A stretch of DNA of 64,000 bases from Candidatus Omnitrophota bacterium (GTDB lineage: Bacteria > Omnitrophota > Gorgyraeia > 1-14-0-20-64-10): the NCBI GenBank assembly GCA_016177405.1, contig JACOVG010000033.1, positions 41,486-105,485 of the forward strand, written 5' to 3'. Shown in pieces: positions 3,589 to 45,209 of the stretch. Both the position numbers and the translations under genes were made by a program. Position 1 is the stretch's first letter. Each line of letters opens with the position of its first letter. A model generated the notes under the pieces. That model ran no database searches. It had not been told where the DNA came from and saw nothing but the letters and a program-made list of their open reading frames with translations.

Positions 3589-4841
3589 ACCTCTGCGTGA
3601 TCATCCCGACGCTGAATGAGGCCGAAACCCTTCCACGCCTTCTTACCCCATTGCGAGCGGGTGGGGTGTCGGAGATCCTCGTCGTGGATGGAGGCAGCCG
3701 CGATGGCACCCCGGACATTGCCCGGAAGTTTGGCGTGACGTGCTTGCCGTCAACCCGGGGACGTGCGGCTCAGCTGAACCGGGGCGCGGCGGCCGCCCGC
3801 GGCGATTGGCTCTGGTTCCTACACGCTGATACGGCCCTGTCGGCGGATTGGCACGAGCAACTCCGCCGGGCGATGGAAGATCCGGCTGTCGTTGGAGGCG
3901 GTTTCCGGTCCGTTATCGATGCGCCCGGAGCGGGCTACCGGTTCTTGGATGCGTGGGGATGGCTGAGAACGAGGAGCCAGCGCAGCTTCTACGGGGATCA
4001 AGGAATTTTTGTCCGCCGGGATCTGTTTGAGCGTTTGGGGGGGTTCGCGGAGATTCCCGTGTGCGAAGATGCCGAGTTCTCCAGACGGATGTGGCGGGCC
4101 GGACGGGTGGCGATTCTTCCAGGTCCGCTGCGCACCTCGGCCCGGCGGTGGCAGCGGCACGGCTGGTGGCGCACCGTCTTTCAACATTCCTGCCTGGTCC
4201 TTACCCATTCGCCCATTCTCCCGTTCTTTCGTTCTCTCGTTCCTGTTGTCATCTTCGCCAAGCTTCCGGTCCCCGGAGAAGTGAAAACGCGCCTGGTTCC
4301 CCCTTTGACCCAGCAAGAAGCCGCTGACCTGGCGCTCAAGCTGCTTCGCGAGACGGTCGCGACGGTGAGACGGCTGAATGGCGTCCAGCCGATCGTGGCG
4401 GTCTGGCCTCCGGATGGGCTTGCTCGGATGCGCGAGCTTCTTTCCATGCCGGTCCGCCTTATCCCACAGGAGGACGGGGGTTTTGGAAAGCGGCTCGCGG
4501 ATATCTTCAACAAACTCCACGAAGAGGGCGCAAAGGGAACGATCATCCTGGGGGCGGACCATCCCAATCTTCCGGCGGGCTACCTCAAGCAGGCGGTGAA
4601 GCTCTTAAGCAACGGCAAGGATCGAATCGTCCTGGGCCCGACAGAGGACGGGGGCTACTACCTGATCGGCTTGACCCGGCCCCACCCGGAGCTTTTTCAC
4701 AACATCCCCTTCAGCAGCCCCGATGTCCTCAAAGCTACCCGGGAGCGGGCTAAGACCGCAGGGCTTCCGGTCGCGCTGCTTCCCCCCTGGTACGACCTCG
4801 ACCGCCCGGAGGACCTTTCACGGTACAATAGCTCTCCGTGA
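3585..4841 (+). CDS. Fusion of a GT2 glycosyltransferase (TIGR04283-like) and a DUF2064 transferase (TIGR04282-like)
   Basis: The N-terminal ~210 aa is a GT2 fold (IIPTLNE, VVDGGSRDGT, DxD-like region). The C-terminal ~200 aa matches the DUF2064 pattern (LGADHPNLP, GPTEDGGYYLIGL). The two are joined in one 418-aa frame. Confidence 0.7.
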   Translation: MNLCVIIPTLNEAETLPRLLTPLRAGGVSEILVVDGGSRDGTPDIARKFGVTCLPSTRGRAAQLNRGAAAARGDWLWFLHADTALSADWHEQLRRAMEDPAVVGGGFRSVIDAPGAGYRFLDAWGWLRTRSQRSFYGDQGIFVRRDLFERLGGFAEIPVCEDAEFSRRMWRAGRVAILPGPLRTSARRWQRHGWWRTVFQHSCLVLTHSPILPFFRSLVPVVIFAKLPVPGEVKTRLVPPLTQQEAADLALKLLRETVATVRRLNGVQPIVAVWPPDGLARMRELLSMPVRLIPQEDGGFGKRLADIFNKLHEEGAKGTIILGADHPNLPAGYLKQAVKLLSNGKDRIVLGPTEDGGYYLIGLTRPHPELFHNIPFSSPDVLKATRERAKTAGLPVALLPPWYDLDRPEDLSRYNSSP

Positions 4842-5551
4842 AGAAGAGACTCTCCATTCTGCTGTTTCTAGGCGCCCTCTTTTCCGCCTATGCCGAGGCA
4901 GCCTCCGGAGCTGTCCAGGTGGATGAAGTCCGTTATCGAGACGATCCAGAATTGACCGGAACCTTGGCCATCCCTCAAGGGGAGGGACCCTTTCCAGCGG
5001 TAATCTACAACCATGGGGGGTTTGGCGGCTTCATCGCGGGCCCGCCGAGAGAGACCGCCCAAGCTCTGGCCCAGGCGGGGTACGTCGGGCTCTCTCCGAT
5101 TCGAAGGGACGATGTCGCCATGGAGGGAAATCTGGAAGATGTTTTAGCGGCAGTGGATTATGTGAAGGGCCTTGAAAAGGTTGACCCTCACCGGATCGCC
5201 CTGCTGGGATTTTCCCGCGGCGGGCTTTTGGTTCTGATGGCGGCCGCCGAAAGGACCGATCTAACGGCGATTGTCCTGATGGCTCCGGCTCCGGGCCGGG
5301 GGCATCTGGGGCCGGTCCTGGATCGGTTGAACCGAGTCCATGTCCCTGTCTTACTGATGGTGGCCTCCAACGATGAAAAGCAGGCCGATCATGTGGGGAT
5401 CGCCAAGGAAATCCACCAGAGGCTCAAGGCCGAAGGAAAGAATTCCAAGCTCATCGTCTATCCCCCCTATGGCTCTGACGGCCACCGCCTTTTTTTCGAG
5501 GTGGGCGCCTACTGGAAGGATCTCCTCGCTTTCCTCCAGACGTATCTGTAA
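4838..5551 (+). CDS. Secreted alpha/beta hydrolase, dienelactone-hydrolase family
   Basis: Signal peptide MKKRLSILLFLGALFSAYAEA. Nucleophile elbow GFSRGG. Asp and His lie downstream as expected for the family. Confidence 0.7.
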   Translation: MKKRLSILLFLGALFSAYAEAASGAVQVDEVRYRDDPELTGTLAIPQGEGPFPAVIYNHGGFGGFIAGPPRETAQALAQAGYVGLSPIRRDDVAMEGNLEDVLAAVDYVKGLEKVDPHRIALLGFSRGGLLVLMAAAERTDLTAIVLMAPAPGRGHLGPVLDRLNRVHVPVLLMVASNDEKQADHVGIAKEIHQRLKAEGKNSKLIVYPPYGSDGHRLFFEVGAYWKDLLAFLQTYL

Positions 5552-5664: not shown

Positions 5665-8025
5665 ATGGTCGCCTTAATCCGCCGCTTCGGCCTTCTCGTC
5701 GTGTTCGCGCTCTCCTTTTCGGTTGGCCCAACTCCCCTGGTTTGGGCTGATTTCCCCGACGAGGAAGATGCACACTGGCAGCTCATCAAGGAGCGCAAGA
5801 AGAGACTTCTGGCCCGGCTTACCACGCCTTACGGGATCGAAGAGCTAACGGGGAACCTGGATGAGATCCCCTGGCGGCATTTGCGTCTTCAGAAAGAGGG
5901 CAGTTTCGAGGCGGGCGGCCGAATCTCCGGTGAGGGGCCGTTTCCCTTCCACGTGAATTATGGCCCGCGGGCGGAGTCCGGCAGCGGGGTTTTCGATTCT
6001 CTCCGTCTGGCCTGGAACGTCAACAAGGACGCGGGGAACCGCTACGCCCGCTTGGGCAATCTCCGGGTGCGCGAAGATTCCCGGCACCCGCTTGGCCCCG
6101 AAGGGGGTCAGGTTCTCTTCTCCGGGGATTGGTCCGGCAGTCTACGGATGGCCGACCGGTATCGCAACGGCATGCTTAGCCTGAAAGGCAGCAAGAGGCT
6201 TTTTTGGAGATGGAACAACCAGGAGCGGCATGTGGTCTGGAGCGGAAATGAATGGGGGAGCGGCTCCCTGTGGCTGGGCGCCATCCAGCCCGACCGGATT
6301 GATTTGAAAAGGGCTTTTTTCAGGGGCGATCTCCAGGTGGGGGACCTTCTCCTCAAGCCCAGGTTCTACCTGGACAAAACCAGCCTGCGGTGGAACCGAA
6401 CAGCGTCCCAGGTAAGCGGTGGACTCTACGAACAGAGGGGACCGTCTATCCTCCTGGCCGAGGCGGATTTCGACCAAGAGCGGTGGCAGAATCTGAAAAC
6501 CCGCGTGGAGGATGAGCTGATTCCAACCGGCGGAGATCAGGAGCAGTGGCTTCAGGCTCTGTCCGATCTGCAGGATGCCGTGCGGCTTAGAAAGATCACC
6601 ATCAAGCCCCGCCTCTTGGACCGGCGCGTGGATATAGGCTACCGTCCGGCGGACAAGGTCCTTCACATGATCGCCAGAGATTTTCCGGTCGTCGAAATAG
6701 ACTTCAGCGGTGTGGCCCGCCCGATCGATGTCGCGCTGGCCAGCCAGCAGATCACCGGGTTGCCGCTCAACCGCCTGCTGGAAAACCAGGAGAAGCTCCT
6801 GCTGTCCAATTTCTCTCAGACGCTGTACGGGGAGAAAACGCCTGCCTACCTGGAGGCCTTTTCGCCGGTCGCCTCTTTCGGGGCCGTTTCCTCCGGCTCG
6901 GTCCAGTTCCTAAACCAAAGCGGTTTCGCCCTGGAGGATCCCCTGTACGACGAAAACGGCGGCATCCGGCTGGGCTACCGGCACGGGGCGATGGAGTCTC
7001 TCACGCCCCTGTTCGACGGCGCCAGCTACACCCAGCTTGGGATTCAGGGCGGCGATGTGGATGTGGCCCAGGTGGGATGGCGCCAGCCGCTTCTGACGGG
7101 TCCGGCCGTCTCCCTTGCCGCGGAGGGGATGGCGTACGTGGCCAACTTCCAAGACGACCTGCAGTTTTCCCTCGAAGGCCCCCGGGATCCGCTGCGGGAA
7201 GAGTTCCTGACGTTCCGCGCGCCGGAGGGAATTCTCCTGGGGGAGGTCTCAGAGGAAAGAATTTCCAACCTGACCCTGCCGGGCGGCTTCTTAGGGGTGG
7301 AGGCCTCCGCCTTTGACGAAAGACTCGGTCTTCGTTACCGGGCGGTGCCTTACCTGCCGATCACGATCGGCGCCCACAGCGCGGAGGAAGGCGAGAGCGG
7401 GGACTTCCGGGGTCTTCTGGAGGCCGGAAACGCGATCGGGTATGCCTCCGACATCTCCGCTTTCGTCAAACAGCCGGTGCTGGGGCGGGAGGTTTTCGCC
7501 GCGCTCCACAAGGATGCCGCGGACCGCCTGGAGGCGGTTTCCTCCTGGGAGGTTCTGCCGGGCGTCAAACCCGGAATCCGCCTGGGCCAGGCGCGCGCCT
7601 TTGGCGACCTTCGGACGGCGTTCGTTAATGCCCGCTGGGGCGCGAACACCGTGGCCGCCAGCCTGCAGGAGGATGAAGCGCATCAGGCCCGCGGCTACGA
7701 TGTCCGGATGGGCCGTCTCTGGGGCGGCCGCCAATGGGAGGCCGGCATGACGCTCAAGCATTACCTGACCGGCGTCATCGAAGACGACGGCTTGGATCCT
7801 CTGTTGGAGCGGCAGTGGATGGCGAGCGTGTCAGATCCTTCCGGCCGCCAGCGGTTGATCCTGGCCTATGGGGACGATACGCTGGAAGCCAAGAACACCC
7901 TCTTCGCCGGCATCGAGCGGTCCGTCTCGGATTCGCTTCGCTGGAAAGGGGGAGCGGAACTGACCACTTTTCAGGAAGAGGAATCGGAACTGCGCGGCTC
8001 ATTCAATTTGCGCTGGCTCTTTTAA
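5665..8025 (+). CDS. Large secreted or outer-membrane hypothetical protein (786 aa)
   Basis: Signal peptide MVALIRRFGLLVVFALSFSVGPTPLVWA. The C-terminus ends in an aromatic residue (LRWLF), as in OM beta-barrels. No recognisable catalytic motif. It has a strong RBS and its own promoter. Confidence 0.55.
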   Translation: MVALIRRFGLLVVFALSFSVGPTPLVWADFPDEEDAHWQLIKERKKRLLARLTTPYGIEELTGNLDEIPWRHLRLQKEGSFEAGGRISGEGPFPFHVNYGPRAESGSGVFDSLRLAWNVNKDAGNRYARLGNLRVREDSRHPLGPEGGQVLFSGDWSGSLRMADRYRNGMLSLKGSKRLFWRWNNQERHVVWSGNEWGSGSLWLGAIQPDRIDLKRAFFRGDLQVGDLLLKPRFYLDKTSLRWNRTASQVSGGLYEQRGPSILLAEADFDQERWQNLKTRVEDELIPTGGDQEQWLQALSDLQDAVRLRKITIKPRLLDRRVDIGYRPADKVLHMIARDFPVVEIDFSGVARPIDVALASQQITGLPLNRLLENQEKLLLSNFSQTLYGEKTPAYLEAFSPVASFGAVSSGSVQFLNQSGFALEDPLYDENGGIRLGYRHGAMESLTPLFDGASYTQLGIQGGDVDVAQVGWRQPLLTGPAVSLAAEGMAYVANFQDDLQFSLEGPRDPLREEFLTFRAPEGILLGEVSEERISNLTLPGGFLGVEASAFDERLGLRYRAVPYLPITIGAHSAEEGESGDFRGLLEAGNAIGYASDISAFVKQPVLGREVFAALHKDAADRLEAVSSWEVLPGVKPGIRLGQARAFGDLRTAFVNARWGANTVAASLQEDEAHQARGYDVRMGRLWGGRQWEAGMTLKHYLTGVIEDDGLDPLLERQWMASVSDPSGRQRLILAYGDDTLEAKNTLFAGIERSVSDSLRWKGGAELTTFQEEESELRGSFNLRWLF

Positions 8026-8064: not shown

Positions 8065-8391
8065 ATGGGGAATCCGAATAAACCGCTAAGGGCCAGGGAC
8101 CCGAGGATCGCGGCGGTCGTCAACCAGGGCGGCTGCACCGGCTGTGAGGCGTGCCTGACCATTTGCCCGGTGGACTCAATCGAGCCGGTGCCGGGGGCCG
8201 AGCACCCGGGCCTCTTCAAGCTCGTGGAGATCGACCTGGACCGCTGTATCGGCTGCGGGCTGTGCCCCAAGATCTGCCCGTGGGACACCATCACCATGGA
8301 ACCCTACCCGCAGGCCCGGTCCATGGCCCCGGAGCGGACCATCCGTTCCGTGGTTCCGGGCCATCGCGCCGCTTGCCCGGCACCTGTGTAA
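8065..8391 (+). CDS. 2x[4Fe-4S] ferredoxin-like protein
   Basis: Two CxxCxxCxxxCP cluster motifs (CTGCEACLTICP and CIGCGLCPKICP). Confidence 0.7.
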   Translation: MGNPNKPLRARDPRIAAVVNQGGCTGCEACLTICPVDSIEPVPGAEHPGLFKLVEIDLDRCIGCGLCPKICPWDTITMEPYPQARSMAPERTIRSVVPGHRAACPAPV

Positions 8392-8862
8392 ATGGCCTCC
8401 ACCTATCTCACCCCCGCCGGTCTCGCCAAGCTGGAAAACGAGCTGGCCGAGCTCAAGAAGCAGAAACGCCGGCTCTCCGAAGAGGTGGGCATCGCCCGGG
8501 AGCTTGGGGATTTGCGGGAAAACGCCGAGTACCACGCCGCCAAGGAGCGGCTCCAGCATCTACTGGAGAGGGTTTCCGAGATAGAGTTCAAGCTCTCCAA
8601 CGTTCATGTGATCGATTCCAGCCAGCTCGATTCCAGCATGGCCTCGGTGGGGATGAGGCTTAAGGTGAAGGAGCTTGCTTCAGGTAAAGAGGAAAGCTAC
8701 ACCCTGGTCGGCGCCGAAGAGGCCGATCCCGCCAACGGAAAGATCTCCTTTCAATCGCCGCTCGGGCGCGCCTTCCTGGGCCACAAGGTCCAGGAGGAAG
8801 TGACCGCCATCCTTCCGGCCGGCTCCCGCTCTTACCGAATCCTCGCGATCACTCCCGCCTAG
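8392..8862 (+). CDS. greA: Transcription elongation factor GreA
   Basis: 156 aa. N-terminal coiled coil LTPAGLAKLENELAELK...RENAEYHAAKE, followed by a C-terminal FKBP-like domain. Confidence 0.9.
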   Translation: MASTYLTPAGLAKLENELAELKKQKRRLSEEVGIARELGDLRENAEYHAAKERLQHLLERVSEIEFKLSNVHVIDSSQLDSSMASVGMRLKVKELASGKEESYTLVGAEEADPANGKISFQSPLGRAFLGHKVQEEVTAILPAGSRSYRILAITPA

Positions 8863-11945: not shown

Positions 11946-13253
11946 TTAGGCGGGGATTTCCCCGGTGATCGCTTTGAATCTCAAGTAACGACGCTTGGCC
12001 TCGTACTGGGCCTGGGTGAGCTGGCGCCGGGCTTCCTGAAGCTCCTGAAGGCTTTCGAGGTACCGGATCGGGCTCACGAGCCGGTATCGAAACTCCTCGC
12101 TTTGGGCCGCGTGGCTGTCCGAGACGGCCTTCCAGGCCTGAGCCAAAGCGCCGGCCTCACCCAGGGCGGACTGCACCCGAGAGTAGGCGTCCCTGATCTC
12201 GGAAAGGGCCTTGCGCTGGGTTTCGGTGAGCGTGAGCCGGGTTTGGCGCTCGCCCGAGGCCGCCTCCGCGACCGCGCCGCGGGTTTGGCCTCCCTCAAAA
12301 ATGGGAACCTCCACCTTCAGAGCGGCATCCCAGTCCACCTCCTTGGAAGCGCCAACCCTTTCCACGAAATAGTTGCCCTCCAAATTCACGGTGGGCCACC
12401 GTCCGGCCTTGGCCAGCCGAACGCTCTCGTGGGCCGCCTGGCTGGATTCCTGCGCCGCCAGCACATCCGGCCGGGAGAAGGCCTTGGCCAGGTAGGTTTC
12501 CGGCGGGTCAAGCCGAAAGGGATAAGGATCGGTTTCCTTCACCAGGGGAAGGGGTTCCACGCCGGTTAAAAATTCGAGGAGCTGGCGGGCCAACCCTTGC
12601 TGAAGAGCGGCCTGCTCCATTTCGGCATCCAACCGGTGGAGATCGGCTTGCGCCCGGTGAGCCTCGCTGGCCTTAAGCCATCCCAGCCGTTCCCGCTCTC
12701 TCACCTGGGCCAATCGCTCCAGGAGGGTTGTCCGGATCGAGGCCAGGGCCTCAAGCTCCTCCTGTTGCCTAAGAAGCTCCACAAAGGCCTCCGCCACATC
12801 GACAAAAAGGAGCTGCTCGGCCCTTCGTTTCTCCTGAAGACGCTGCCGGCCCTCCGCCTTTGTGCCGGCCATGGCGGCGAACTCCTTGAAACCGGAAAAG
12901 AGGGGCTGGCTCATGACAAACTTTCTCTCCGGAACCTCTTTGAGGGTGAAGGCGGAGCCGCCGCTGCCGTCCTGCCGCTTGTCGGAGGAGGAGAAGGTGA
13001 CCCGCGGGAGAATGCCGCTTATGGCCTGGGTGAAGCGGGCCTCGGTCTCGGTGATCAGCTCCTTTTGGATGGCCACCGTCTCGCTTCGCGCGAGGGCCAG
13101 CCGGTAGCATTCTTCCAGGGTCAGCGGCCCTGAAGGGGAAGCCTCTTGGGCCAAGGCCGGAAGGGTAAGCCCGAACAGGAAAACGGTCAAGAGGATCTTG
13201 CGGAGGAGGGCGAGATAGGCGGCTTGCTCCCTCGCGCTAAGATTCTTCAGCAT
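11946..13253 (-). CDS. TolC-family outer membrane efflux protein, counted from internal Met116 of the 550-aa ORF
   Basis: Signal-peptide-like stretch ILLTVFLFGLTLPALAQEA is followed by two OEP repeats. It is in frame with the upstream MarR domain and no stop codon separates them. Confidence 0.7.
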   Translation of the reverse strand: MLKNLSAREQAAYLALLRKILLTVFLFGLTLPALAQEASPSGPLTLEECYRLALARSETVAIQKELITETEARFTQAISGILPRVTFSSSDKRQDGSGGSAFTLKEVPERKFVMSQPLFSGFKEFAAMAGTKAEGRQRLQEKRRAEQLLFVDVAEAFVELLRQQEELEALASIRTTLLERLAQVRERERLGWLKASEAHRAQADLHRLDAEMEQAALQQGLARQLLEFLTGVEPLPLVKETDPYPFRLDPPETYLAKAFSRPDVLAAQESSQAAHESVRLAKAGRWPTVNLEGNYFVERVGASKEVDWDAALKVEVPIFEGGQTRGAVAEAASGERQTRLTLTETQRKALSEIRDAYSRVQSALGEAGALAQAWKAVSDSHAAQSEEFRYRLVSPIRYLESLQELQEARRQLTQAQYEAKRRYLRFKAITGEIPA

Positions 13254-13598
13254 CGCCCCCATGGTTTTTCGCCGCATCTTGCCAAACTGCATGAAGAGCA
13301 GGCGGCCCTTGGGGGTGATCGAAACCCAGACGACGCGGCGGTCCGCCTCGTCGCGGCCTCTGGCCGCCAGGCCCCCTCGCACCATCCGGTCCACCAATCC
13401 GGTGGCCGCGCTCATCTGAATTCCAAGCAGAAGGGAAAGCTCGCGCATCTTCTGGCGCCGGTGGCGAAGCAGGGCGTCCAGGATCACCACCTGGGGCAGG
13501 GTGAGGGTGCCGTAGCCCTTCAAGCCCCGCTCCCGGCGGACGATCCGCCGGAAGAGGGCGAGGACCAGCTCGAACAGTTCTTGCGGAGCGCTGGGCAT
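13191..13598 (-). CDS. MarR-family transcriptional regulator domain (N-terminal ~136 aa of the same 550-aa ORF)
   Basis: Winged-helix pattern LTLPQVVILDALL...LGIQMSAATGLVDRMVRGGLAAR...RRVVWVSITPKGR. Dimerisation helix LSAREQAAYLALLRKIL. There is no stop before the OMP signal peptide. Confidence 0.6.
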
Positions 13599-13618
13599 GG
13601 TTACCTATTACTTCGTGC

Positions 13619-13635
13619 ACATGAAATGTTCATAT
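13619..13635. promoter_or_regulatory. Inverted repeat ATGAA-N3-TTCAT in the marR/MFS divergent intergenic region (candidate MarR operator)
   Basis: cacATGAAatgTTCATat sits between the divergent starts at 13598 (-) and 13677 (+). A TATATATA stretch follows. Confidence 0.35.
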
Positions 13636-13676
13636 ATATAAAATAACACACTCCCCCCAAGCCCGTCAACCCTGGA

Positions 13677-14915
13677 ATGTGCTACACTACCCCCGACATG
13701 CCCCGCGACCGACTCCTCATTTACGCCGCCGGCTTCTTGAGGGCCTTGGGGGTGGGCCTGGTGGGGGTTTTGTTTGCCTTGTACCTCGCCGCCAGGGGGT
13801 TCCACACCGGGCAGATCGGACTGCTGGTGGCCGCGGGGATAGCCGGCAACGCCCTGGCCACCTTCGGGGTGAGCTTTTTCGCCGACCGCCTGGGGCGCCG
13901 GAGGACCCTCCTCGCGCTTTCCGCTTTGATCGTGGTCGGTGGAGCTGGCCTGGTTCTCTTGCCCCGCTTTCTTCCCCTGGCCTTCGTGTCGTTTCTGGGG
14001 ATGGTCAACGCCATGGGGCGCGAGCGGGGCGCCCTGTTCACCCTGGAGCAGGCGATCATCCCGGCGACGGCCGACGACCGGCACCGGACCCAGGCCCTGG
14101 CCTGGTACAACGTGGTGTTGGACGCGGGTCAGGCCCTGGGCTCCCTCTTGGGCGGCGTGCCCTTTCTTTTGCGGCGAAGCCTCGGATGGGAGGATCTGGC
14201 TTCCTACCAGGCGGCCTTCGCCGGATACGCTGTCTTGGGGCTGGCGGGCTTCTTCCTCTATATGGGCTTAAGCCGGAGGGTGGAGGTCGCGGGCCCCGGC
14301 TCCCTGCCTGCCGGTCTCAAGGCCTGGCGGGGCATCTCTGGCCCCTCCCGAAGGATCATCACCCGGATTTCCCTCCTCTTTGGGATGGACTCGATCGGCG
14401 GAGGATTCCTTCCCTCGTCCCTCATCGCCTACTGGTTCTTCAAGCGGTTTGGGATCGGGGAGGAGTGGCTGGCCCCTCTTTTCTTTGTGGCCCATGTGGC
14501 CAACGCCTTCTCGTATCTGGCGGCGGCCTGGATCTCCCGCCGGATCGGCCTGGTTCGGACGATGGTCTTCACCCATCTGCCGTCCAACGTGTGTCTTCTC
14601 GCGATTCCCTTCGCCCCAAGCCTTCCCGCGGCGGCGGCTCTGTATCTTCTGCGGGAGTGTCTGGTGGAGATGGATGTCCCCACCCGGCAGTCTTACGTGA
14701 TGGCGGTGGTGGCGCCGGCCGAGCGGACGGTGGCGGCCGGGGTGACGAATCTCACCCGCCTGATCGCCTGGACGATTGCCCCGGGGATAGCGGGTTTTGC
14801 CATGAAGGGGCTGGCCATGAGCTTTCCCCTCTTGGCCGGCGGAGGCATCAAGATCGTTTACGACCTCACCCTCTACCGTTCCTTCCGCCACGTCAGGCCC
14901 CCCGAGGAGCGGTAA
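13677..14915 (+). CDS. MFS transporter
   Basis: 412 aa with 12 predicted TM segments and the MFS loop motif ADRLGRRRTL. Divergent from the marR ORF. Confidence 0.8.
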   Translation: MCYTTPDMPRDRLLIYAAGFLRALGVGLVGVLFALYLAARGFHTGQIGLLVAAGIAGNALATFGVSFFADRLGRRRTLLALSALIVVGGAGLVLLPRFLPLAFVSFLGMVNAMGRERGALFTLEQAIIPATADDRHRTQALAWYNVVLDAGQALGSLLGGVPFLLRRSLGWEDLASYQAAFAGYAVLGLAGFFLYMGLSRRVEVAGPGSLPAGLKAWRGISGPSRRIITRISLLFGMDSIGGGFLPSSLIAYWFFKRFGIGEEWLAPLFFVAHVANAFSYLAAAWISRRIGLVRTMVFTHLPSNVCLLAIPFAPSLPAAAALYLLRECLVEMDVPTRQSYVMAVVAPAERTVAAGVTNLTRLIAWTIAPGIAGFAMKGLAMSFPLLAGGGIKIVYDLTLYRSFRHVRPPEER

Positions 14916-15333: not shown

Positions 15334-17667
15334 ATGATACGCCGAGGGCTGGCCTCACTTATCCTCGTCACCTATACTGCCTCCTTCATCCTTTCGCCGG
15401 CTCCCGGCTTTGCTCAAGACCCGACCGATTCTCCGCAAGAAACCCCCGCTGCCGGAGCTCGCCTCTTTACCGTTAAAGAGCAAGCCCAAGCATTGGGCTC
15501 TGATCCGCAGAGGATCTTCCGGTTCGTCTCCGATCAGATCCGTTACGAATCCTACGCCGGCGTCTTAAGGGGCTCCGAGGGGACCCTGCTGGCCCAGGCG
15601 GGCAACAGCTTCGACAAATCACTGCTTCTGGCCGCCCTGTTGAAAGAAGCAGGAGTGGAATTCCGTTTTGTTCGAGGAATCCTGGAGCCAGGGGCGATGG
15701 ATCGAACGATCGCCTCGATGCTCACGCCACAACCCCTGGAATCTTCCCTGCCCGGTGAGTCCCCCGGGACGGATTTTTCCAAGCTGACCCATGAACAGCA
15801 GGAGTTTCTGGAAGAAGGATACGACCGCTACGCCGCCATGCTTGAGCGGATTCAGGAAAGGACCGATGAGAACTTCAAGTGGCTGGCCGACCTGCTGGAG
15901 GCCAACGGGATCTCCGCCCCACAGGAGATTCCGGATCAGGTGAGGCCCTTAAGGAAGGAACTCGAAGAGCATCTCTGGCTCGAGGCCAAGCTTGGCGAGG
16001 AATGGGTGGCGATGGATCCCTCTGTCCCGGCCGCCCCCATCGGCCAAGCCTTTGGCAAGCCGCAGGATTACCCGGCCGAGATCCCCAAGGATCTGCTTCA
16101 TTGGATCAACCTTTCGATCTGGATCCGCTCGGGGGCTGCCGCGGGTCAGCAGGATAAGCACATCGTCTCACACGACGTCCCCGCCTTCTTCCTCTTTGGC
16201 AAGTCTGTCACGATCGCCAACACCCCAGAGGCCGGTTTGGCCGGCTTGGGAAGCATGATGGGAGGGATGCTCGAGGGGAAGACTGGAACCACCTTTTATC
16301 CCGCCATTCAGATTGGAACCCAGACCTATGAGGGCGAAGCAGTCACCTGGGCCCCTCCCCGGCCGGCTTCCACCGCCTCCAAGCCCAAGCGCGGTGGAGG
16401 GCTCTTTGGGGGGCTCGATGTTTTGGACGAGGCCGTCCGTCCGGAAGAGGCCGCCAAAGACAACGCCAAGCAATCCCTGCCGATCACGGAGTGGGTGGAA
16501 GCCACCCTTCGATCTCCCGGAGGCGGCGTGGAGAAGCTGAAGTGGAACCTCTTCCATTGGGACGCCAGCTCCGGCGGCAATCCCGATCCCACCGCGGCCT
16601 CATGGGAGCTGTCGGTGATCTCAGGCAAGGTTCTTTATCCGGTCCTGGGCCGCCTCTTAAGACGGGCCCTCTTTTCCGCCAGCCCCGACTCCGCCTGGAG
16701 GATGAGCTCCTATCTCAACTACAACCATGCCTTCCTCCGGGATGAGATGCTCGATTACGTTTATGAGCCCAGCGATGCCATCCGCTACGTCGATTCTCCC
16801 CATCTGGCGGTCACCGAGATCGCCCTCCAGGAGAACCAAGCCCTCTCCTTGAAGATGAACCTGGTAAGACCGGCCAGAAGGGTTCTCCTGCCAGCGGATG
16901 CTCCCCCAGAGCGCTGGCAGCGGCTCTTCTTTGAACAGCTCTTCATGGGGGTTCTCGATGCCCAGATTGAGCGGGCGGTGGTGGAGGAGACTGTTTCTCA
17001 AGAGGAGGGTGCCTTGGCCTGGGTCGACAGCGTTCCCTCCCTCTTTGAGAAGGCCAAGGAGCAGGGAATCCCCCTCTGGGTTTTGACGCAGGCCTCCTCC
17101 GATAAGGTGAAGCAGCTTTCAACCTCGGAAGCGGTGAAGACCCGCCTGAGAGAGCAGCTTGCGGCCGGCAACGCCCTGGTGATTCCCAGCCGCCCGGTCG
17201 CCATCGGCTCCCAATCTCGACTGGGCTGGTGGCGGGTGGTGCTCGCGACCGGCCAGACCCAAGACGAGACCCCCGAGGGCCAGCATCAGGCCTCGACGGA
17301 GAAGGCCGTGCTGGAGACTCACGCGACCACCACCGCCACCCGGGCGATGCAGGCGTTCCAGAAGGTTCTCTGCAGCAAGATCGCGACGATCGCCTTTGTG
17401 ATCCTCTCCGCGGTAGCTACGGAAGCCACCATGGGGAGTATGGGCTCCGTCCTCCAGGATCTCATGGAGCAGGTCGGAAACATCCCAGCCTGCCCCGTGA
17501 AGAAGCCCCCCCTGCGGCCTAAGCCGCCTGCGCCTCCGATCAGAAGACCCAGGCAAAATTGGCCCAGGCCTCAAAACCAGAGGCAGCCGCCCCGCCCCGA
17601 CATCCCGGACAGGCGCCGCCGGCCCGAGGCGTATTACCCCTCCTCCCGCTCCCCCAGGGGCCACTAG
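15334..17667 (+). CDS. Secreted transglutaminase-like domain protein (Cys-to-Ser variant) with Pro/Arg-rich C-terminal tail
   Basis: I chose the ATG at 15334 (MIRRGLASLILVTYTASFILSPAPGFA signal peptide, GAGGAGG RBS) because the ORF-track start at 15280 merely translates the palindrome. The TGase core aligns as G-N-S-F-D-K-S against the canonical G-x-C-R-D-F-A. The His (EHLWLEA) and Asp (AMDPS) are conserved. The C-terminal ~55 aa are Pro/Arg-rich. Confidence 0.65.
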   Translation: MIRRGLASLILVTYTASFILSPAPGFAQDPTDSPQETPAAGARLFTVKEQAQALGSDPQRIFRFVSDQIRYESYAGVLRGSEGTLLAQAGNSFDKSLLLAALLKEAGVEFRFVRGILEPGAMDRTIASMLTPQPLESSLPGESPGTDFSKLTHEQQEFLEEGYDRYAAMLERIQERTDENFKWLADLLEANGISAPQEIPDQVRPLRKELEEHLWLEAKLGEEWVAMDPSVPAAPIGQAFGKPQDYPAEIPKDLLHWINLSIWIRSGAAAGQQDKHIVSHDVPAFFLFGKSVTIANTPEAGLAGLGSMMGGMLEGKTGTTFYPAIQIGTQTYEGEAVTWAPPRPASTASKPKRGGGLFGGLDVLDEAVRPEEAAKDNAKQSLPITEWVEATLRSPGGGVEKLKWNLFHWDASSGGNPDPTAASWELSVISGKVLYPVLGRLLRRALFSASPDSAWRMSSYLNYNHAFLRDEMLDYVYEPSDAIRYVDSPHLAVTEIALQENQALSLKMNLVRPARRVLLPADAPPERWQRLFFEQLFMGVLDAQIERAVVEETVSQEEGALAWVDSVPSLFEKAKEQGIPLWVLTQASSDKVKQLSTSEAVKTRLREQLAAGNALVIPSRPVAIGSQSRLGWWRVVLATGQTQDETPEGQHQASTEKAVLETHATTTATRAMQAFQKVLCSKIATIAFVILSAVATEATMGSMGSVLQDLMEQVGNIPACPVKKPPLRPKPPAPPIRRPRQNWPRPQNQRQPPRPDIPDRRRRPEAYYPSSRSPRGH

Positions 17668-17672
17668 CGGAG

Positions 17673-20600
17673 ATGGACGAAATGCCGCTCCTTCGTCATT
17701 GCGACCGCGAGCGTCAGCGAAGCGGGAAGCGGTCTTGTCTTAAAATCGGGATTGCTTCGTCGCTGGCGCTCCTGGCAATGACGTATCACTGGGCCTTCGC
17801 GGAATCCACCGTCGAGCCGGTGAACCTCGCCTCTTTCGCCAACGGCGGCAGGATAGAAAGCGCCAGCTCCGACGGCTACGGCAACGTGCCGGCCTACCTG
17901 CTGGACGGAAATCCGGAAACCCAATGGGAAACGGCCTACGGCGATAAAACCAGAGAGGTGGTCCTCTCCTTCTTCGACGGCCGCGAGGCCCTTCTGGATG
18001 CGGCGGTTCTTCATCCCGGCGCCCAGGCCGGCTCTCAGGCCATCAAGGAGTTTGAGCTGCTCCTTTCGGATCAACCCACCGGAGACGATTTCCAATCGGC
18101 CGGGGTCTTTGCCTTAACCCAGGAGGCGGCCGATCAACGGTTTGATCTTGCCGGGAAGAGGGCTCGGCGCCTGAAACTCAAGGTCCTTTCCACCTATGGA
18201 GGCGATCGTTGCGCATTGACGGAGCTCAAGATCCTGGAGGCCGGGGCGCCGGAGGCCTCCCTCTTGAAGGATGCCTTCGCCCAGCCCGTCGCGCAAGAGG
18301 CCCTTTCCACAAGGACCAATCTGGTTTACGTGAGAAATGGCAGCCGGGTGGTTTCCGCCTCCTCCCAGGCCTACGATTACCTCCCCCAGCGGCTGCTGGA
18401 TGGCCACGCGACCGACGAGCGGCGCTGGGAGGGTTACTACAAGGATCTTCAGCCGGAGCTGACCTTTGCTTTTTTTGAAGACCGGCTGGCCGTGGTGGAC
18501 GGCGTTGTGATCCATCCCGGCGAGAAGTATCCGGATTACTGGGTTCGGGAGCTGGAGCTTTGGGCCTCTACGACCGAGCCGGATTCCAGCTTTGAAAGAA
18601 TCGGCCGCTTTATCTTAAAGAAGGAATCAAGCCATCAGCTCATCCCGTTTCCGCCCAGGCCCGTCAAGTATCTCAAGGTCAAGTGCCTGACCCGCTACGG
18701 CCGCCTCAACAATGCCGAGGGCTGCCGGATTGCGGAGCTGATGGTCCTGGAGCATCCCGAGCCGGGCAAGCCCTCCATCCTGGAGGGGGCCTTTGCCCAG
18801 CTGGTGTCGGCCGAGACGCTGGCCCTCGCCAGGGATCTTTTAAGCCCCTCTTTGGGCGGCCGGATCGTGTCGGCCTCCTCCTCCGGCTACAGCAGCAGCC
18901 CGCCCGCGCACCTGGTAGACGGCAAGGTGGACGAGTACAACTATTGGGAGGGGGCCTACAAGGATCCCCAGCCGGAGATTGTCGTCTCCTTTTTTGACGA
19001 CCGGGCCGCCTGGGTCGACGGCGTCGTACTCCACACCGGCTCAAAATATTCAGACAACTGGCCCAGGGACGTGGAGCTTTGGGCCTCCCTGGAAAAGTCG
19101 GACTCCGGCTTCAAGAAGATCGGCCGATTCCTTCTTAAAGAAGAGGCCGGCTACCATCGGCTTTTCTTCCCTCCAACGCAGGCCAAGTACTTGAAGGTCA
19201 AGTTCCTGGGCCGCTTTGGCCGGCTCAAGGACGCCGAGCAGTGCCGCGCGGGGGAGCTGATGGTTCTCGAGTCGAAGGAAGAGGGAAACGTCTCCATCCT
19301 GGAGGATGTTCTCACCCAGCCGCTTTCCGCCCACTCGATCGCTGGAGGGGTCAACGTGGCCTTTCGAACCCTGGGCGGCAAGGTGGAGGACGCCAGCTCC
19401 TCGTACGACGACAAGTTCAAGCCGGACAACCTCATCGACGGCATGACGGGTTCGGAGAACTCTTGGGCGCCGGCCAAGGATCAAGCGCCTCCCCACGAGA
19501 TCGTCTTCTCGTTTCTTCGCCAGAAGGCGGCCTGGATCGACAAGGTGGTTCTGGACCCGCGGCACCAGGTGAGGAACACCGCGACGGTCAAGGATTTTGA
19601 GATCTGGGTTTCCCAGGAGGCCAGCGGAGAGTCGTTCACCAAGGCAGGGCGCTTCTTGGCGCCCAACCAGATGATCGAGCAGGCGGCCCTCCTGCCCAAG
19701 CCGGTTTTGGCGAGGAGGGTCAAGCTCAAGATCCTCTCGGCGCATGACGAGAAGCTTCTTCCGGCCCTGGCGGAGGTGATGATCCTGGAGGCCCCCTCGG
19801 CCGGCCCCTCGGTCCTCTCCGATCTTAAGCTGAACTTGGCCGACCGCTCGCTGGGCTTCTCGCTCGTCCGCTTTACCTCCCAGGGCTCAAGCGGCCAAGA
19901 AAGGTGGATGGCCTCCCAACTGTTTAACCCGGCTCGCGAGCCGGAGGGATGGGCCTCCTCGGACAACAAGTTCCCGCAGGATCTGGTCTTTGGCTTCGGG
20001 CTGGGCCAGCGTGTTTTGCTCCGGAGGGTCATCCTGGAGGCCCCTCCCGTCCTTGAGACAAGACCCAAGCAGTTCAGCCTTCGGACCTCTCTGGAGTCTC
20101 CGGTGCGGGGTTTGAAGACGATAGGGGAGGAGGTTTACGACTTCGATCCCTCCGCCGCCGAGCAAGTGGTTGAGTTTGATCCTCCCATGGAGGCCAGGTA
20201 TCTCATGCTTCGGATCCTCTCCAACCAGGGAGGCAGGGTGACCGGCTTGAAGGCGATCCGGATGATCGAGGCCCAAGCCCCCGGTTATCTCTCGCTGGCG
20301 ACCCGGCTTGGACAAGTGGGCGGCAGCCGCCCCGGGCAGGAGGAGGAAGAGGCGGTCTCCTCTGTCGAGGAGGGAGCTCGCCCAGAGAAGGAGCCCAACG
20401 ACAGTCCTGCCCAGGCCGATCCGGTAGCGCTGGAGGAGAAGGTGGCCGGCAAGATCGATCCCCCGCAGGAGGTAGATTACTATCGGCTCGATCTCGCCCG
20501 TGCCGACCGAAACATCTTAAACCTTGAGCTGACCGGCAGGCCTTACCTGCGCACCTCGCTTGCGTTAAGCAAAGAGGCAGATCCCTCTTGGACGAAGCAA

Positions 20601-22112
20601 TTTACACCCGAGAAGGCCTCCGGTCAGCAGGCGCAGATCTCTTGGAAGTTCGAGCCGGCCTCGTACCTTCTCAAGGTCTCGGAGCCCAAGAGCTCCCTCG
20701 TCCTCATCTACGACACGAGCGGCAGCATGCAGGGCAGCCAGCAGGATCTTGAAGCTGCCGTGGCCAGTTACGCCAAGGCGATCCAAAAGGGAGAGGAGAT
20801 GGCCGTCGTCCGCTTCTCGAACAAATCCCAGAGGCTTTGCGATTTTACGGATGAGCCGGCTGTCCTCGTGAAGGCCCTGGAGGGGCAGTTTACTCCCAAC
20901 GGAGGAACCTCCCTCTTCGACGCCCTTCGAGACGGCATCGCCCTGCTGGAAGGGCGGCTGGGCAACCGAGCGATTATTCTGATGACCGATGGGATGGATT
21001 CGACGAGCTCGACCAAGTACACGGAGATCTGGTCCGTCCTGGAGGGCTTAAGCAGGAGCAACATCCGACTCTACACGATCGGGATGGGCCAGGACCTCAA
21101 GCAGTACACGCCGGCGATCGGGGCCACGGGTGGCGAGATGCTGGCCCACTTTGCCGCCGCCACCGGCGGACGATTCTTTTACGCCCCCACCTCCAAGGAG
21201 CTCGTGGGGCTGTACGAGGAGATTTCGCGGGAGCTCCGGATGATCACCCGCTACACCCTCACCACCTCCCTAGGAGGCGGCGAGGGCGGATTGCGTCTGA
21301 TCGAGGCCGGCGAAAGGATCCAGGGGGTGGGGGCCCCCACGATCGTGGAGTTCATCCTGGATGCCTCCGGCAGCATGAGCTCTTCCCGGGGAATGAAGGG
21401 CGGAAAAAAGAAGATCACAGTGGCCAAGGAAGTCCTTTCCGAGCTGATCCGAAGCATGCCGGAGGATTACCGCTTGGCCCTGCGGGTCTACGGGCACCGC
21501 TTCAAAGGGGACAAGAAGGATTCCGAGCTTTTGTTTTCCCCGACCGAGGGCAACCGGGACCCCATGCTCAAGAAGATCGCCGCGATCCAGCCGGTGGGCT
21601 TAACCCCCATCGCCTACTCGCTGACCCAGGTGATCAGCGACCTGGCCAACCTGCCGGGAGAGAAACTCGTCATCTTAGTCAGCGACGGCGAGGAGACCGG
21701 CGGGGGAGATCCGGTGAAGGCGGCCCAACAATTGCACTTCATGGGGGTGGGGGTCAAGGTGAACGTTGTCGGCTTTGACATCGCCGAGCAGAAGGTGCAG
21801 GAGCAGATGCGCCAGATCGCCGCCATGGGCGGCGGGCAGTACTATGGGGCCAAGAACTCTGACGAGCTGATTGGTTCCCTGCGCCAGGCCCTGCGCGCCA
21901 GCTTCAAGATCTTCGATGACAGCGGAGAAGAGATGGCGACGGGGCAAATCGGCGAGGGAGAGGTCAAACTCCCGGCAGGGCGCTACAAGGTGGTGGTCCG
22001 CCCGGAGGATCCCATCACGGTAGAGGGGGTGGAGGTCCGCCACAAGGCGGTGACGGAGGTCAAGATCAAGAAGGAAGGGGACCGGATCCAAACCGAATGG
22101 CGCATCCCATGA
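17673..22112 (+). CDS. Giant secreted multidomain protein: five discoidin (F5/8 type C)-like repeats, a PPC domain and two vWA domains
   Basis: Start chosen at MDEMPLL..KIGIASSLALLAMTYHWAFA (signal peptide), just after the upstream stop. Five ~160-aa repeats are each marked by YLLDG..W and ELMVLE. Then comes a pre-peptidase C-terminal domain (KEPNDSPAQA...VDYYRLDL). Then two vWA domains with MIDAS motifs (DTSGSM, DASGSM). Confidence 0.7.
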   Translation: MDEMPLLRHCDRERQRSGKRSCLKIGIASSLALLAMTYHWAFAESTVEPVNLASFANGGRIESASSDGYGNVPAYLLDGNPETQWETAYGDKTREVVLSFFDGREALLDAAVLHPGAQAGSQAIKEFELLLSDQPTGDDFQSAGVFALTQEAADQRFDLAGKRARRLKLKVLSTYGGDRCALTELKILEAGAPEASLLKDAFAQPVAQEALSTRTNLVYVRNGSRVVSASSQAYDYLPQRLLDGHATDERRWEGYYKDLQPELTFAFFEDRLAVVDGVVIHPGEKYPDYWVRELELWASTTEPDSSFERIGRFILKKESSHQLIPFPPRPVKYLKVKCLTRYGRLNNAEGCRIAELMVLEHPEPGKPSILEGAFAQLVSAETLALARDLLSPSLGGRIVSASSSGYSSSPPAHLVDGKVDEYNYWEGAYKDPQPEIVVSFFDDRAAWVDGVVLHTGSKYSDNWPRDVELWASLEKSDSGFKKIGRFLLKEEAGYHRLFFPPTQAKYLKVKFLGRFGRLKDAEQCRAGELMVLESKEEGNVSILEDVLTQPLSAHSIAGGVNVAFRTLGGKVEDASSSYDDKFKPDNLIDGMTGSENSWAPAKDQAPPHEIVFSFLRQKAAWIDKVVLDPRHQVRNTATVKDFEIWVSQEASGESFTKAGRFLAPNQMIEQAALLPKPVLARRVKLKILSAHDEKLLPALAEVMILEAPSAGPSVLSDLKLNLADRSLGFSLVRFTSQGSSGQERWMASQLFNPAREPEGWASSDNKFPQDLVFGFGLGQRVLLRRVILEAPPVLETRPKQFSLRTSLESPVRGLKTIGEEVYDFDPSAAEQVVEFDPPMEARYLMLRILSNQGGRVTGLKAIRMIEAQAPGYLSLATRLGQVGGSRPGQEEEEAVSSVEEGARPEKEPNDSPAQADPVALEEKVAGKIDPPQEVDYYRLDLARADRNILNLELTGRPYLRTSLALSKEADPSWTKQFTPEKASGQQAQISWKFEPASYLLKVSEPKSSLVLIYDTSGSMQGSQQDLEAAVASYAKAIQKGEEMAVVRFSNKSQRLCDFTDEPAVLVKALEGQFTPNGGTSLFDALRDGIALLEGRLGNRAIILMTDGMDSTSSTKYTEIWSVLEGLSRSNIRLYTIGMGQDLKQYTPAIGATGGEMLAHFAAATGGRFFYAPTSKELVGLYEEISRELRMITRYTLTTSLGGGEGGLRLIEAGERIQGVGAPTIVEFILDASGSMSSSRGMKGGKKKITVAKEVLSELIRSMPEDYRLALRVYGHRFKGDKKDSELLFSPTEGNRDPMLKKIAAIQPVGLTPIAYSLTQVISDLANLPGEKLVILVSDGEETGGGDPVKAAQQLHFMGVGVKVNVVGFDIAEQKVQEQMRQIAAMGGGQYYGAKNSDELIGSLRQALRASFKIFDDSGEEMATGQIGEGEVKLPAGRYKVVVRPEDPITVEGVEVRHKAVTEVKIKKEGDRIQTEWRIP

Positions 22113-40456: not shown

Positions 40457-41281
40457 ATGCGGGGCTCTGTGATGATCATGGCGCTGGCGCTCACGATTCT
40501 CCTGGTGGGCCTGGTGGGCGGCTATCTCTTTACCGTGGGAGTCTTGATCACGAACAGCGGCTGGGAGGAAACCGACGCCAAGACCTTGTGGCTGGCGGAG
40601 GCCGGTTTGCAAAAAGGGATCTGGAACCTGAAAACCCCCGCCGGAAGCGGCGGGCAAGGAGAGAACTGGACGACGGCAGGCACGACAGAAAACCTCGGTG
40701 CCGGGAGTTACACAATGGTTGTCACAAGATATGACTTTGCGCTGGGCACAAACGGAGGAACTGCCTCCGCCTCCTCACAATCAGCACAAGGACAGCGCGC
40801 TTCAAAAGCGATTGATGGGGATGATGAGAGTCGATGGGAATCGGATAACGTTCCAAGCTCGGCCGCGCCGGAACATATTGTCATCAGTTTTCCCTACCCG
40901 CTCACTTTGAACAAGGTTCGTTTTGTAGCGCACTCTTCGAATCAGCGGCCGGTGGATTACACTTGGGGAGTCTCGACGGACGGCTCGGCTTACGCAGTTG
41001 TCGTCACCGTAACAGGAAATGCCGCCACGGACCGCACCGACACGTTCGGTGCGCAGTCAAATGTCAACCATTTGAAACTCATAGTTACGGCGATCGGGGG
41101 CGGCCAAAAAGGAGTCGGTATTTCCAAGCTCGAGGCGATTGGGAGTAAAATCACCTCAATCGGCACCTTGACCGCCACCGGGCAGACGTACACCCGAACC
41201 ATTTCGCAAACGGTGGCGGCGGACGACGGCTCGCCGCAGAATCAAGTGGCCTATTACGAACCGGACTGGGCGGAGGAATGA
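40457..41281 (+). CDS. GspK/PilX-like tip pseudopilin carrying a discoidin (F5/8 type C)-like domain
   Basis: N-terminal TM MRGSVMIMALALTILLVGLVGGYL lacks Glu+5, as in GspK. Residues ~95-235 (ASKAIDGDDESRWESD ... VRFVAHSS ... LKLIVTAIGG) resemble the discoidin repeats of the 17673 gene. Confidence 0.55.
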   Translation: MRGSVMIMALALTILLVGLVGGYLFTVGVLITNSGWEETDAKTLWLAEAGLQKGIWNLKTPAGSGGQGENWTTAGTTENLGAGSYTMVVTRYDFALGTNGGTASASSQSAQGQRASKAIDGDDESRWESDNVPSSAAPEHIVISFPYPLTLNKVRFVAHSSNQRPVDYTWGVSTDGSAYAVVVTVTGNAATDRTDTFGAQSNVNHLKLIVTAIGGGQKGVGISKLEAIGSKITSIGTLTATGQTYTRTISQTVAADDGSPQNQVAYYEPDWAEE

Positions 41282-45136: not shown

Positions 45137-45209
45137 CCGCCTCCGGAGCATCCTTTTTCCTTTCCAACAGGAAAGGGGGTGTGCTATCTATAAGGAGGGC
45201 ACCACACCC

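Follow-up and report, generated by a model that had tools for sequence, protein, structure and literature searches.

The 550-aa open reading frame (ORF) described here lies in a stretch of 64,000 nucleotides from a Candidatus Omnitrophota bacterium (contig JACOVG010000033.1), referred to below as the window, and encodes a MarR-type regulator, a signal-peptide-like segment and a TolC-family channel in one frame, directly upstream of a gene for a resistance-nodulation-division (RND) permease. A genuine gene fusion of a MarR repressor domain, a Sec signal sequence and a TolC-family outer-membrane factor (OMF) is the best explanation for this ORF, and it is very probable that the fusion is real and a member of a conserved family. 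Judged by sequence comparison, the MarR-signal-TolC arrangement is a recurrent and so far undescribed architecture of Candidatus Omnitrophota and neighbouring lineages, the building blocks of which all belong to known families. Full-text literature searches turned up neither MarR-TolC fusions nor efflux systems of Omnitrophota, and no OMF-RND operon that lacks an adaptor.

Architecture of the fused ORF

The first-pass annotation, made from the letters of the window and a list of its ORFs, had reported one uninterrupted minus-strand frame in which a complete MarR winged helix (aa 1 to about 136) runs through a signal peptide into a full TolC-family protein without a stop codon, and this description has held in all its parts. 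The ORF list and the codons across the junction (...ctc ctc cgc aag atc ctc ttg acc gtt ttc ctg...) are free of stops. A hidden frameshift was considered and rejected: MarR homology stays in frame 0 up to residue 136, the other frames are rich in stops, and a MarR-like continuation was absent from both of them at the junction. In the AlphaFold2 model of the whole ORF (mean pLDDT 87.6, built on 86 sequences), a continuous helix (residues 122-149) leads from α6 of the MarR domain through the hydrophobic segment and is followed by a coil of 10 residues and then by a complete TolC protomer.

Both domains are well supported by family models and structures. The MarR part matches Pfam PF01047 (34.0 bits, cutoff 24.6) and PF12802 (31.3 bits, cutoff 27) over aa 32-90, the MarR-type models of NCBIfam reach aa 132-137, where those models end, and the PDB MarR chain 2rdp_A aligns to aa 7-135 (E=1.8e-12). 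The model contains α1 (4-22), α2 (34-45), α3 (51-58), the recognition helix α4 (62-74), α5 (96-118) and α6 (from 122), together with a wing at 78-94 (strands 78-82 and 90-94) that carries D86-R87-R88. Foldseek matched this part to the MarR family members BldR, Tm0710, YusO and HpaR (TMt 0.54-0.62). Model and matches together give the full MarR fold, with dimerisation helices flanking a winged helix-turn-helix and a β-hairpin wing. It is not, however, a stand-alone MarR protein of about 140-160 aa, as the domain makes up the N-terminal 136 aa of 550 and is followed by a hydrophobic segment.

In the TolC part, Pfam OEP (PF02321) was found in two stretches with 136 bits, and TIGR01844 aligns to aa 159-548 at 143 bits, which is under its cutoff of 225 bits. 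The modelled protomer contains four β-strands and two long helices of 67-69 residues and was matched by Foldseek to TolC, OprM, CusC and VceC (TMt 0.66-0.76). Two OEP repeats and a protomer of an α-barrel and a 4-stranded β-barrel are what characterises TolC-type OMFs. Stand-alone Omnitrophota TolC proteins of about 420 aa are 50-60% identical to this part.

The segment that joins the two domains begins with R133-K134, which are also the last residues of the MarR domain. They are followed by the hydrophobic stretch ILLTVFLFGLTL (135-146), giving a hydrophobic core of 12 residues, by PALA (147-150), in which a helix-breaking Pro stands before the AxA, and then by QEA and an acidic stretch predicted to be periplasmic. 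R133-K134, ILLTVFLFGLTL and PALA/QEA (the slash marks the predicted cut) are thereby recognisable as n-, h- and c-regions of what is predicted to be a textbook signal sequence, the n-region of which is supplied by MarR. According to the -3/-1 rule, signal peptidase I would cut between A150 and Q151. The classical N-terminal signal peptide of the TolC family is not found here, as the segment is internal and stands behind a cytoplasmic domain of 132 aa. Lipoprotein-type processing was rejected, there being no lipobox Cys in the segment.

Recurrence of the fusion across genomes

A scan of one genome per GTDB species, in which stop-to-stop ORFs were mapped by BLASTP with the three window proteins, returned 80 loci. 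Almost all of these come from Candidatus Omnitrophota metagenome-assembled genomes (MAGs), including some labelled Planctomycetia/Planctomycetales, and a few are labelled Auribacterota, Elusimicrobia or Chlamydiota. A separate marR gene lies directly upstream of tolC in 36 of the 80 loci, 34 have no marR, and the remaining 10 (L014, L028, L031, L032, L034, L035, L043, L047, L075 and L081) contain a single stop-free MarR-TolC ORF. An eleventh fusion, carrying a fourth MarR subtype, was found on the Logan contig L002 (P0007), and four of 80 loci from a metagenome scan were fused. Protein databases gave the same picture. When searched with the L014 fusion, 28 of the best 120 clusters at 90% identity held MarR and OEP in one protein of 550-588 aa; these clusters stem from assemblies of NCBI, JGI, ENA and Logan, and any name that they bear is just 'TolC family protein'. 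A profile of 27 fusions run against 1.84 billion representatives at 50% identity yielded 18 full-length fusions among the top 150 matches, full-length meaning a single stretch from profile position 34 or lower to position 556 or higher.

The junctions of the fused proteins follow one plan. All of them start with the end of MarR α6, typically ...YLxILExVVKxL, and continue with a linker of 2-6 residues that is usually basic. Then come 12-22 uncharged residues and a small-x-small motif (mostly A-x-A) with an acidic residue or Gln at +1. The conserved mature N-terminus (P)LTLxxCYxLAL begins shortly past this cleavage motif. A TolC ATG of its own with a K/R n-region no more than 15 aa from the hydrophobic core is present in 53 of 66 unfused loci and in none of 12 fused ones. 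With no separate TolC start, the conserved TolC, which is followed by an intact RND gene coupled to it, could be made only via the fusion in most fused lineages. In a few fusions a former TolC Met-Lys-Lys is still in frame (L135/P0257, with SIMKKAALAIV..., as well as P0176 and P0251), and these look, from their sequences, like early stages of fusion. In the regulator half, residues kept in at least 80% of the 36 separate MarR proteins, among them Q36, R71, R80, D86-R87-R88, T95, K97 and G98 (window numbering), are equally conserved in 11 fused ones.

In a neighbour-joining tree of TolC and RND from 60 loci, fusions appear at three or more separate positions. One of these is a deep clade of L047, L081, L034, L028, L014, L035 and L075, in which the fused state looks ancestral on the evidence of the tree. 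Another is the pair L032/L043, which adjoins the unfused L055, and the third is the window itself, alone within a clade of separate genes. Taken together, the stop-free layout of MarR, signal peptide and TolC occurs in at least four MarR subtypes and in many independent assemblies. Such recurrence, and persistence through divergence to about 40-50% identity, is not explicable by sequencing error. Based on these comparisons, the fusion is predicted to have arisen at least 3-4 times, the copy in the window being one independent case, and to have persisted in one deep clade.

A further apparent fusion, L001/P0015 (NCBI GCA_964595335.1, 2723-4438), was rejected. Its marR gene changes frame within a poly-C run; read in the +1 frame, the C-terminus of MarR goes on (...YLHTLEQVVAILGGKP) to a stop of its own. 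The tolC gene at this locus has an intact GTG start with a GGAGG site 6 nt upstream. Either the homopolymer was misread in sequencing or the marR of L001/P0015 is a pseudogene.

Origin of the fusion in the window lineage

The stand-alone relatives closest to the window are informative about how the fusion came about. A search with the MarR part found six separate MarR proteins (P0121-P0126) of 141-144 aa that are 62-73% identical to it. One of these, P0121 (144 aa), is encoded on an ENA contig of 7.6 kb (7632 bp) that shares the neighbourhood of the window, with the order NYN_YacP, a divergent major facilitator superfamily (MFS) transporter, marR, the OEP protein P0011 (442 aa) and RND. The start of P0011 lies 4 nt before the marR stop (ATGA overlap). 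Compared to this one contig, the MarR part of the window is 73% identical (to P0121) and the TolC part 56% (to P0011); as the MarR part is the better conserved of the two, there is no sign of relaxed constraint on it.

The Logan contig L004 shows the ancestral type of junction at nucleotide level (...CGC CGC ATC TCC CAG AAT TTA AAG GAG ACC ACC TCA TGA GG...). Here marR ends in ...RRISQNLKETTS followed by its stop codon, which overlaps the tolC start in ATGA. An AAGGAG ribosome-binding site is present, and the second ATG of tolC begins MKRPLGFLGFLLILLGCWTLPAWG/QEQ. The window can be matched to L004 as far as ...LLRKI, and the match picks up again within the hydrophobic core. The window thus lacks about 100 nt that comprise the last 8 or so marR codons, the stop, AAGGAG, the TolC ATG or ATGs and the MKRP n-region. 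The nearest relatives have the same gene order as the window and a conserved promoter region but retain the marR stop, AAGGAG and the MKRP n-region. In the window lineage the fusion is a derived state.

The first-pass annotation had left three origins open, namely an internal start that yields a separate channel, loss of a stop codon, or an assembly fusion, and had suggested an alignment of orthologues. This alignment, in which the closest relatives have separate marR and tolC genes and a marR stop, agrees with the loss of a stop codon in the broader sense of a deletion of about 100 nt, while a one-off assembly fusion does not fit a layout that recurs elsewhere. It is nevertheless worth weighing whether the window ORF is an artefact or a recent lesion. 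An assembly or consensus error, or a recent deletion of about 100 nt in this population, would have removed the marR stop and the tolC start and joined the two genes in frame by chance (1 in 3), leaving a gene that is non-functional or only accidentally functional. The nearest relatives, all separate, and the position of the window as the sole fused member of its subclade could be read this way. In addition, neither the genome nor the metagenome scans contained a second assembly of the window lineage, or anything closer than about 60% identity in TolC and 73% in MarR, and L001 demonstrates that frameshift pseudo-fusions do occur in MAGs. The join, however, leaves a textbook n/h/c signal with R-K before it and PALA/QEA behind it. 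Both domains are intact, MarR being better conserved than TolC relative to the same genome, and the identical outcome has been fixed and kept in other lineages, hence it is viable. Clean internal deletions without repeats are also rarely produced by assemblers. An artefact or lesion is therefore considered decidedly unlikely.

Possible internal initiation within marR

Another possibility is that TolC is mainly made from a start inside marR, so that the full-length fusion would be a minor by-product with a dispensable or decaying MarR part. Met116, which the first-pass annotation had already proposed and which stays under consideration, would give a signal peptide of 35 aa (MLKNLSAREQAAYLALLRKILLTVFLFGLTLPALA) with a positively charged n-region, and TTG codon 137 is a second candidate. 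There are in fact four in-frame ATGs (M103, M108, M113 and M116) in addition to this TTG (L137) before the hydrophobic core. Elsewhere, the TolC Met with a K/R n-region has been kept in frame in L135/P0257, P0176 and P0251, and the conserved VVK motif includes a GTG in 7 of 12 fused loci. On the other hand, the members of the fused clade have no conserved start position in common, and the GTG is absent from L014 and L075. Met116 is itself a conserved MarR residue, found within GAMF in the stand-alone relatives P0121-P0126. No Shine-Dalgarno-like site precedes any of the candidates in the window, and a consensus scan inside marR for a separate tolC promoter gave no match. Shine-Dalgarno scoring was dropped as a discriminator, as 53 of 66 genuine unfused TolC starts have no site of at least 4 nt. 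Finally, ribosomes that start at the MarR ATG would still make the fusion because no stop intervenes, and MarR residues stay conserved in fused lineages. Internal starts may coexist with the fusion, but it appears unlikely that they are the main source of TolC.

The RND permease and the missing adaptor

Directly after the fused ORF follows the RND gene. The distance of 3 nt between the channel stop and the permease start (11942) that had been given in the first-pass annotation is accounted for by the spacer CCC between TAA and ATG, and the permease is probably translationally coupled to the fused ORF. With 932.6 bits to ACR_tran over aa 4-1017 and 912 bits to NF033617, it is an HAE-1-type RND permease. 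Its best relative of solved structure is MdtB (9lyq_B, E=2.8e-148), and MdtB, MexB and AcrB range from E=1e-127 to 1e-148. In alignments with AcrB, MdtB and MdtC only small indels were seen. One of these is an insertion of four residues (PIHK) at aa 251-254, after AcrB residue 258. This insertion is found in at least 80% of 60 RND permeases from adaptor-less operons of Omnitrophota and is absent in AcrB, MdtB and MdtC. If the region after AcrB residue 258 is one hairpin tip of the TolC-docking domain, as we take it to be, the insertion may bear on the contact between pump and TolC in systems without a linked adaptor.

A tripartite RND system would be expected to contain a gene for a membrane fusion protein (MFP), and none is linked to the two genes within the 64 kb, as had been claimed for the space between and after them. 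Pfam scans of 33 ORFs of the window found no HlyD/MFP family, and a custom MFP profile built from E. coli AcrA, MdtA, MacA, CusB and MdtE gave nothing at E<=1 among all window ORFs of at least 60 aa. The same profile found only three MFP ORFs in 1.06 Mb of related loci, all of them confirmed as HlyD by Pfam. This result validates the profile, and it makes clear that adaptors for other pumps exist in these organisms. All three belong to separate OEP-HlyD-MFS (EmrAB-like) systems that adjoin marR-tolC-RND (L030 12900-15267, L046 12567-14814 and L060 453-2984). A nearby adaptor gene was rejected on these grounds: the window has none, and those of the related loci are parts of other systems.

The lack of an adaptor gene extends well beyond the window. 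Where both genes are present, the RND start lies at a median of -4 nt from the TolC stop, and in 75 of 76 loci the distance is at most 125 nt, with no MFP gene linked to the pair. L173 and L176, two distant loci with a fusion, likewise have just these two genes and no MFP. The tight spacing and the lack of an MFP across loci make the adaptor-less tolC-RND pair a clade-wide trait.

Control region and operon boundaries

The fused ORF and the divergent MFS transporter gene share a control region of 78 nt (13599-13676). Within it, a sigma-70-like element (Table 1) is the predicted promoter of the marR-tolC-RND operon; its TTGAC and an AT-rich block are conserved upstream of marR in the closest relative (L004). 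The two divergent promoters have their -10 elements overlapped by an AT-rich imperfect palindrome, TGTTCATATATATAAAATAACA. Conserved in part in L004, it is a plausible but weak candidate for a MarR operator. At the other end, the convergent greA leaves no gene after the RND gene on the operon strand.

Table 1 Features of the marR-tolC-RND operon and its borders in the window; aa numbers refer to the fused ORF unless a gene is named.
Feature	Position	Strand	Basis
Single ORF of MarR, signal peptide and TolC-family channel	11946..13598	-	550 aa, ATG start, ORF list
TAA stop of the fused ORF	11946-11948	-	Read from sequence
MarR winged-helix domain, aa 1-136	13191..13598	-	Pfam/NCBIfam matches, 2rdp_A, AlphaFold2, 73% identity to P0121
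Internal signal-peptide-like segment, aa 133-150	13149..13202	-	Read from sequence; helical in AlphaFold2 model
Predicted mature TolC-family outer-membrane factor, aa 151-550	11949..13148	-	OEP x2, TIGR01844, AlphaFold2, Foldseek
HAE-1-type RND permease, 1027 aa	8859..11942	-	ACR_tran, NF033617; start 3 nt past TolC stop
greA, convergent; marks operon 3' end	8392..8862	+	GreA_GreB_N and GreA_GreB matches
Divergent MFS transporter gene	13677..14915	+	MFS_1 match; neighbour conserved on P0121/P0011 contig
Predicted sigma-70-like promoter (TTGACG, 18 nt spacer, TATTTT, TG before -10)	13640..13669	-	Consensus scan
AT-rich imperfect palindrome, candidate operator	13627..13648		Repeat search: 14-nt overlapping arms, 79% complementary

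Proposed export and processing of the fusion protein

A mechanism can be proposed for how such a protein is made, exported and split. The full sequence of events, with Sec targeting, cleavage by signal peptidase and a functional MarR, is judged somewhat probable. Transcription would start from the predicted promoter (13669-13640), and translation would run from the MarR ATG (13598) through to the TolC stop; with no stop in between, every ribosome that starts at the MarR ATG makes the chain of 550 aa. The MarR domain would fold in the cytoplasm while aa 135-146, emerging behind R133-K134, target the chain to SecYEG with the N-terminus inside, in the style of ToxR, CadC and RodZ. Signal peptidase I would then cut after PALA, and the freed TolC part would fold, trimerise and insert in the outer membrane. 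MarR would be left with a C-terminal membrane anchor of 14 residues, continuous with the dimerisation helix α6, and could, while tethered to the membrane, repress its own marR-tolC-RND promoter as well as the divergent MFS promoter. Another possibility is that MarR is released from the membrane by signal-peptide or site-2 proteases. In either case, tethered or released, the regulator would be made 1:1 with the channel. The RND permease, translated by coupling 3 nt downstream, would work with this channel via an unlinked adaptor or, less conventionally, with none. As the C-termini of MarR dimers are located at the apex opposite the DNA-binding lobes, a dimer hung from the membrane could still bind DNA.

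For the individual steps there are known parallels. In E. coli, proteins whose transmembrane segment is internal, over 100 residues away from the N-terminus, are targeted during translation, and RodZ, which has such an internal segment, is targeted in this way by SecA (PMC5674894). Site-1 cleavage of the anti-sigma factor RsiV, an N-in protein, is carried out by signal peptidase (PMC4183432).

Should the hydrophobic segment not be cleaved, the product would be an inner-membrane protein whose MarR domain faces the cytoplasm and whose TolC-like part projects into the periplasm. That part would then be something other than an outer-membrane channel, for example a tethered tunnel that replaces the adaptor. 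Such a signal anchor would suit an operon without an adaptor gene, and a ToxR/CadC-like topology is generally accepted for other regulators. The features of the segment itself speak for cleavage: small residues at -3 and -1 are conserved at its end in essentially all fused members, the core of 12 residues is short, as is typical of cleaved signal peptides, and the AxA motif together with the short core predicts a cut by signal peptidase I after A150. The four β-strands of the outer-membrane barrel are also conserved, and MarR dimers differ in symmetry from TolC trimers, which counts against an uncleaved protein. Geometry points in the same direction. By the dimensions of the published TolC and AcrB structures, a mid-barrel point of a TolC seated on an RND trimer is roughly 12 nm from the inner membrane, and the RND trimer protrudes by about 7 nm. 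In the AlphaFold2 model the hydrophobic helix is no more than about 10 residues away from the TolC helix H161-194, which begins mid-barrel. An uncleaved anchor could thus not reach this point from the inner membrane, and a link of about 10 residues would probably be sterically incompatible with docking on the protruding RND trimer, so that cleavage seems necessary. An uncleaved anchor is accordingly regarded as highly improbable.

Several points weigh against the fusion and its processing as proposed here. The cleavage site was judged by the -3/-1 rule only, and to our knowledge there is no documented natural precedent among outer-membrane proteins for a folded domain of 136 aa in front of a cleavable signal peptide. 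A repressor made 1:1 with an abundant channel would be an odd dosage, and the candidate operator is a weak palindrome with 79% complementarity. Internal initiation at Met116 or TTG codon 137, unlikely as the main route, is possible; Shine-Dalgarno sites being rare here, as noted for the genuine TolC starts, their absence before the internal candidates says little. The window lineage has no close relative (best 59-60% in TolC, 73% in MarR), and its junction rests on a single assembly. Some of the fusions in databases are artefacts or pseudogenes, such as L001/P0015, although most are not.

Comparison to known systems

The operon resembles AcrAB-TolC and MdtABC-TolC pumps controlled by MarR or MprA/EmrR in having an AcrB/MdtB-type RND permease, a TolC channel and a MarR-family gene at the operon head, next to a divergent transporter gene. 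The differences are that the regulator and the channel of the window form one polypeptide, that the signal of the channel is internal, that no adaptor gene is linked, and that the gene order is tolC followed by RND, without an acrA.

With ToxR, CadC and RodZ, its closest analogues in topology, the window precursor would share an N-in orientation and a (winged) helix-turn-helix domain (about 135 aa) that leads directly into a single hydrophobic helix. It differs from them in its DNA-binding domain, which is a dimeric MarR fold rather than an OmpR-type or XRE-type one, and in its periplasmic part, which is an outer-membrane channel that must leave the inner membrane. In addition, the conserved AxA of the window family predicts constitutive cleavage and not a stable bitopic protein. 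The closest parallel in terms of processing is RsiV of B. subtilis (PMC4183432), which is likewise N-in with a cytoplasmic regulatory domain and is cut by signal peptidase at a signal-peptide-like site, after which its membrane stub becomes a substrate of intramembrane proteolysis. RsiV, however, binds a sigma factor rather than DNA and is cleaved only when lysozyme is bound. The ectodomain that it releases serves no function of its own, and the two proteins are unrelated in sequence.

Genomic neighbourhood

Next to greA, an ORF of 108 aa that resembles a 2x[4Fe-4S] ferredoxin (8065-8391) ends where greA begins (8392). A neighbouring ORF of 786 aa (5665-8025) has an N-terminal signal-peptide-like sequence and no Pfam match at E<=0.001. 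Some genes recur near the operon in distant relatives (window 3585-5551, L176 11949-15827, L003 12342-14989). A fusion of glycosyltransferase-2 and DUF2064 is present together with a dienelactone hydrolase in the window and in L176, and a fatty-acid hydroxylase lies directly after the RND gene in L176 and close by in L003. These recurring neighbours might hint at a lipid-related substrate of the pump.

Elsewhere in the window, a two-partner-secretion transporter of the ShlB/FhaC type (POTRA_2 and ShlB, 599 aa) is followed by an ORF of 1892 aa without a Pfam match, which is probably its secreted partner (45117-52692); the presence of this transporter supports a diderm envelope in the source organism. 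In a protein of 1517 aa (17559-22112), F5/8 type C (discoidin) domains occur repeatedly, along with two domains of the von Willebrand A type and a weak Sad1/UNC-like match. The genes for type IV pili and type II secretion (T2SSE 35235-36845, T2SSF 36863-38092, and a PilM-PilN fusion at 41278-42864) have among them a gene for another, shorter protein of the F5/8 type C kind (40457-41281).

Implications

At its most far-reaching, the arrangement would mean that in a whole family of Omnitrophota efflux operons a repressor and an exported channel are made as one preprotein that signal peptidase splits, with the signal peptide doubling as the anchor of a MarR dimer and with TolC and RND working without an adaptor. 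This combination as a whole is tentative and rather doubtful. If processed as proposed, the protein would place a folded DNA-binding domain ahead of the cleavable signal peptide of an outer-membrane protein, and it would define a new class of membrane-tethered MarR regulators in which the leftover signal peptide serves as the anchor.

The pairing of RND and TolC without an adaptor gene extends over about 80 species of an uncultivated phylum. Such pairs cast doubt on the view that an HAE-1 RND pump in a diderm bacterium always requires a linked adaptor of its own, and they supply proteins with which direct docking of RND and TolC can be tested. In public records, fusions of about 560 aa are labelled 'TolC family protein', which leaves their regulator half invisible to predictions of regulons. 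If the proposed processing is true, each exported channel would leave one regulator at the membrane, or one set free by intramembrane proteolysis, and transcription of the pump in these bacteria would be tied to Sec export, a new kind of link between gene regulation and protein export.

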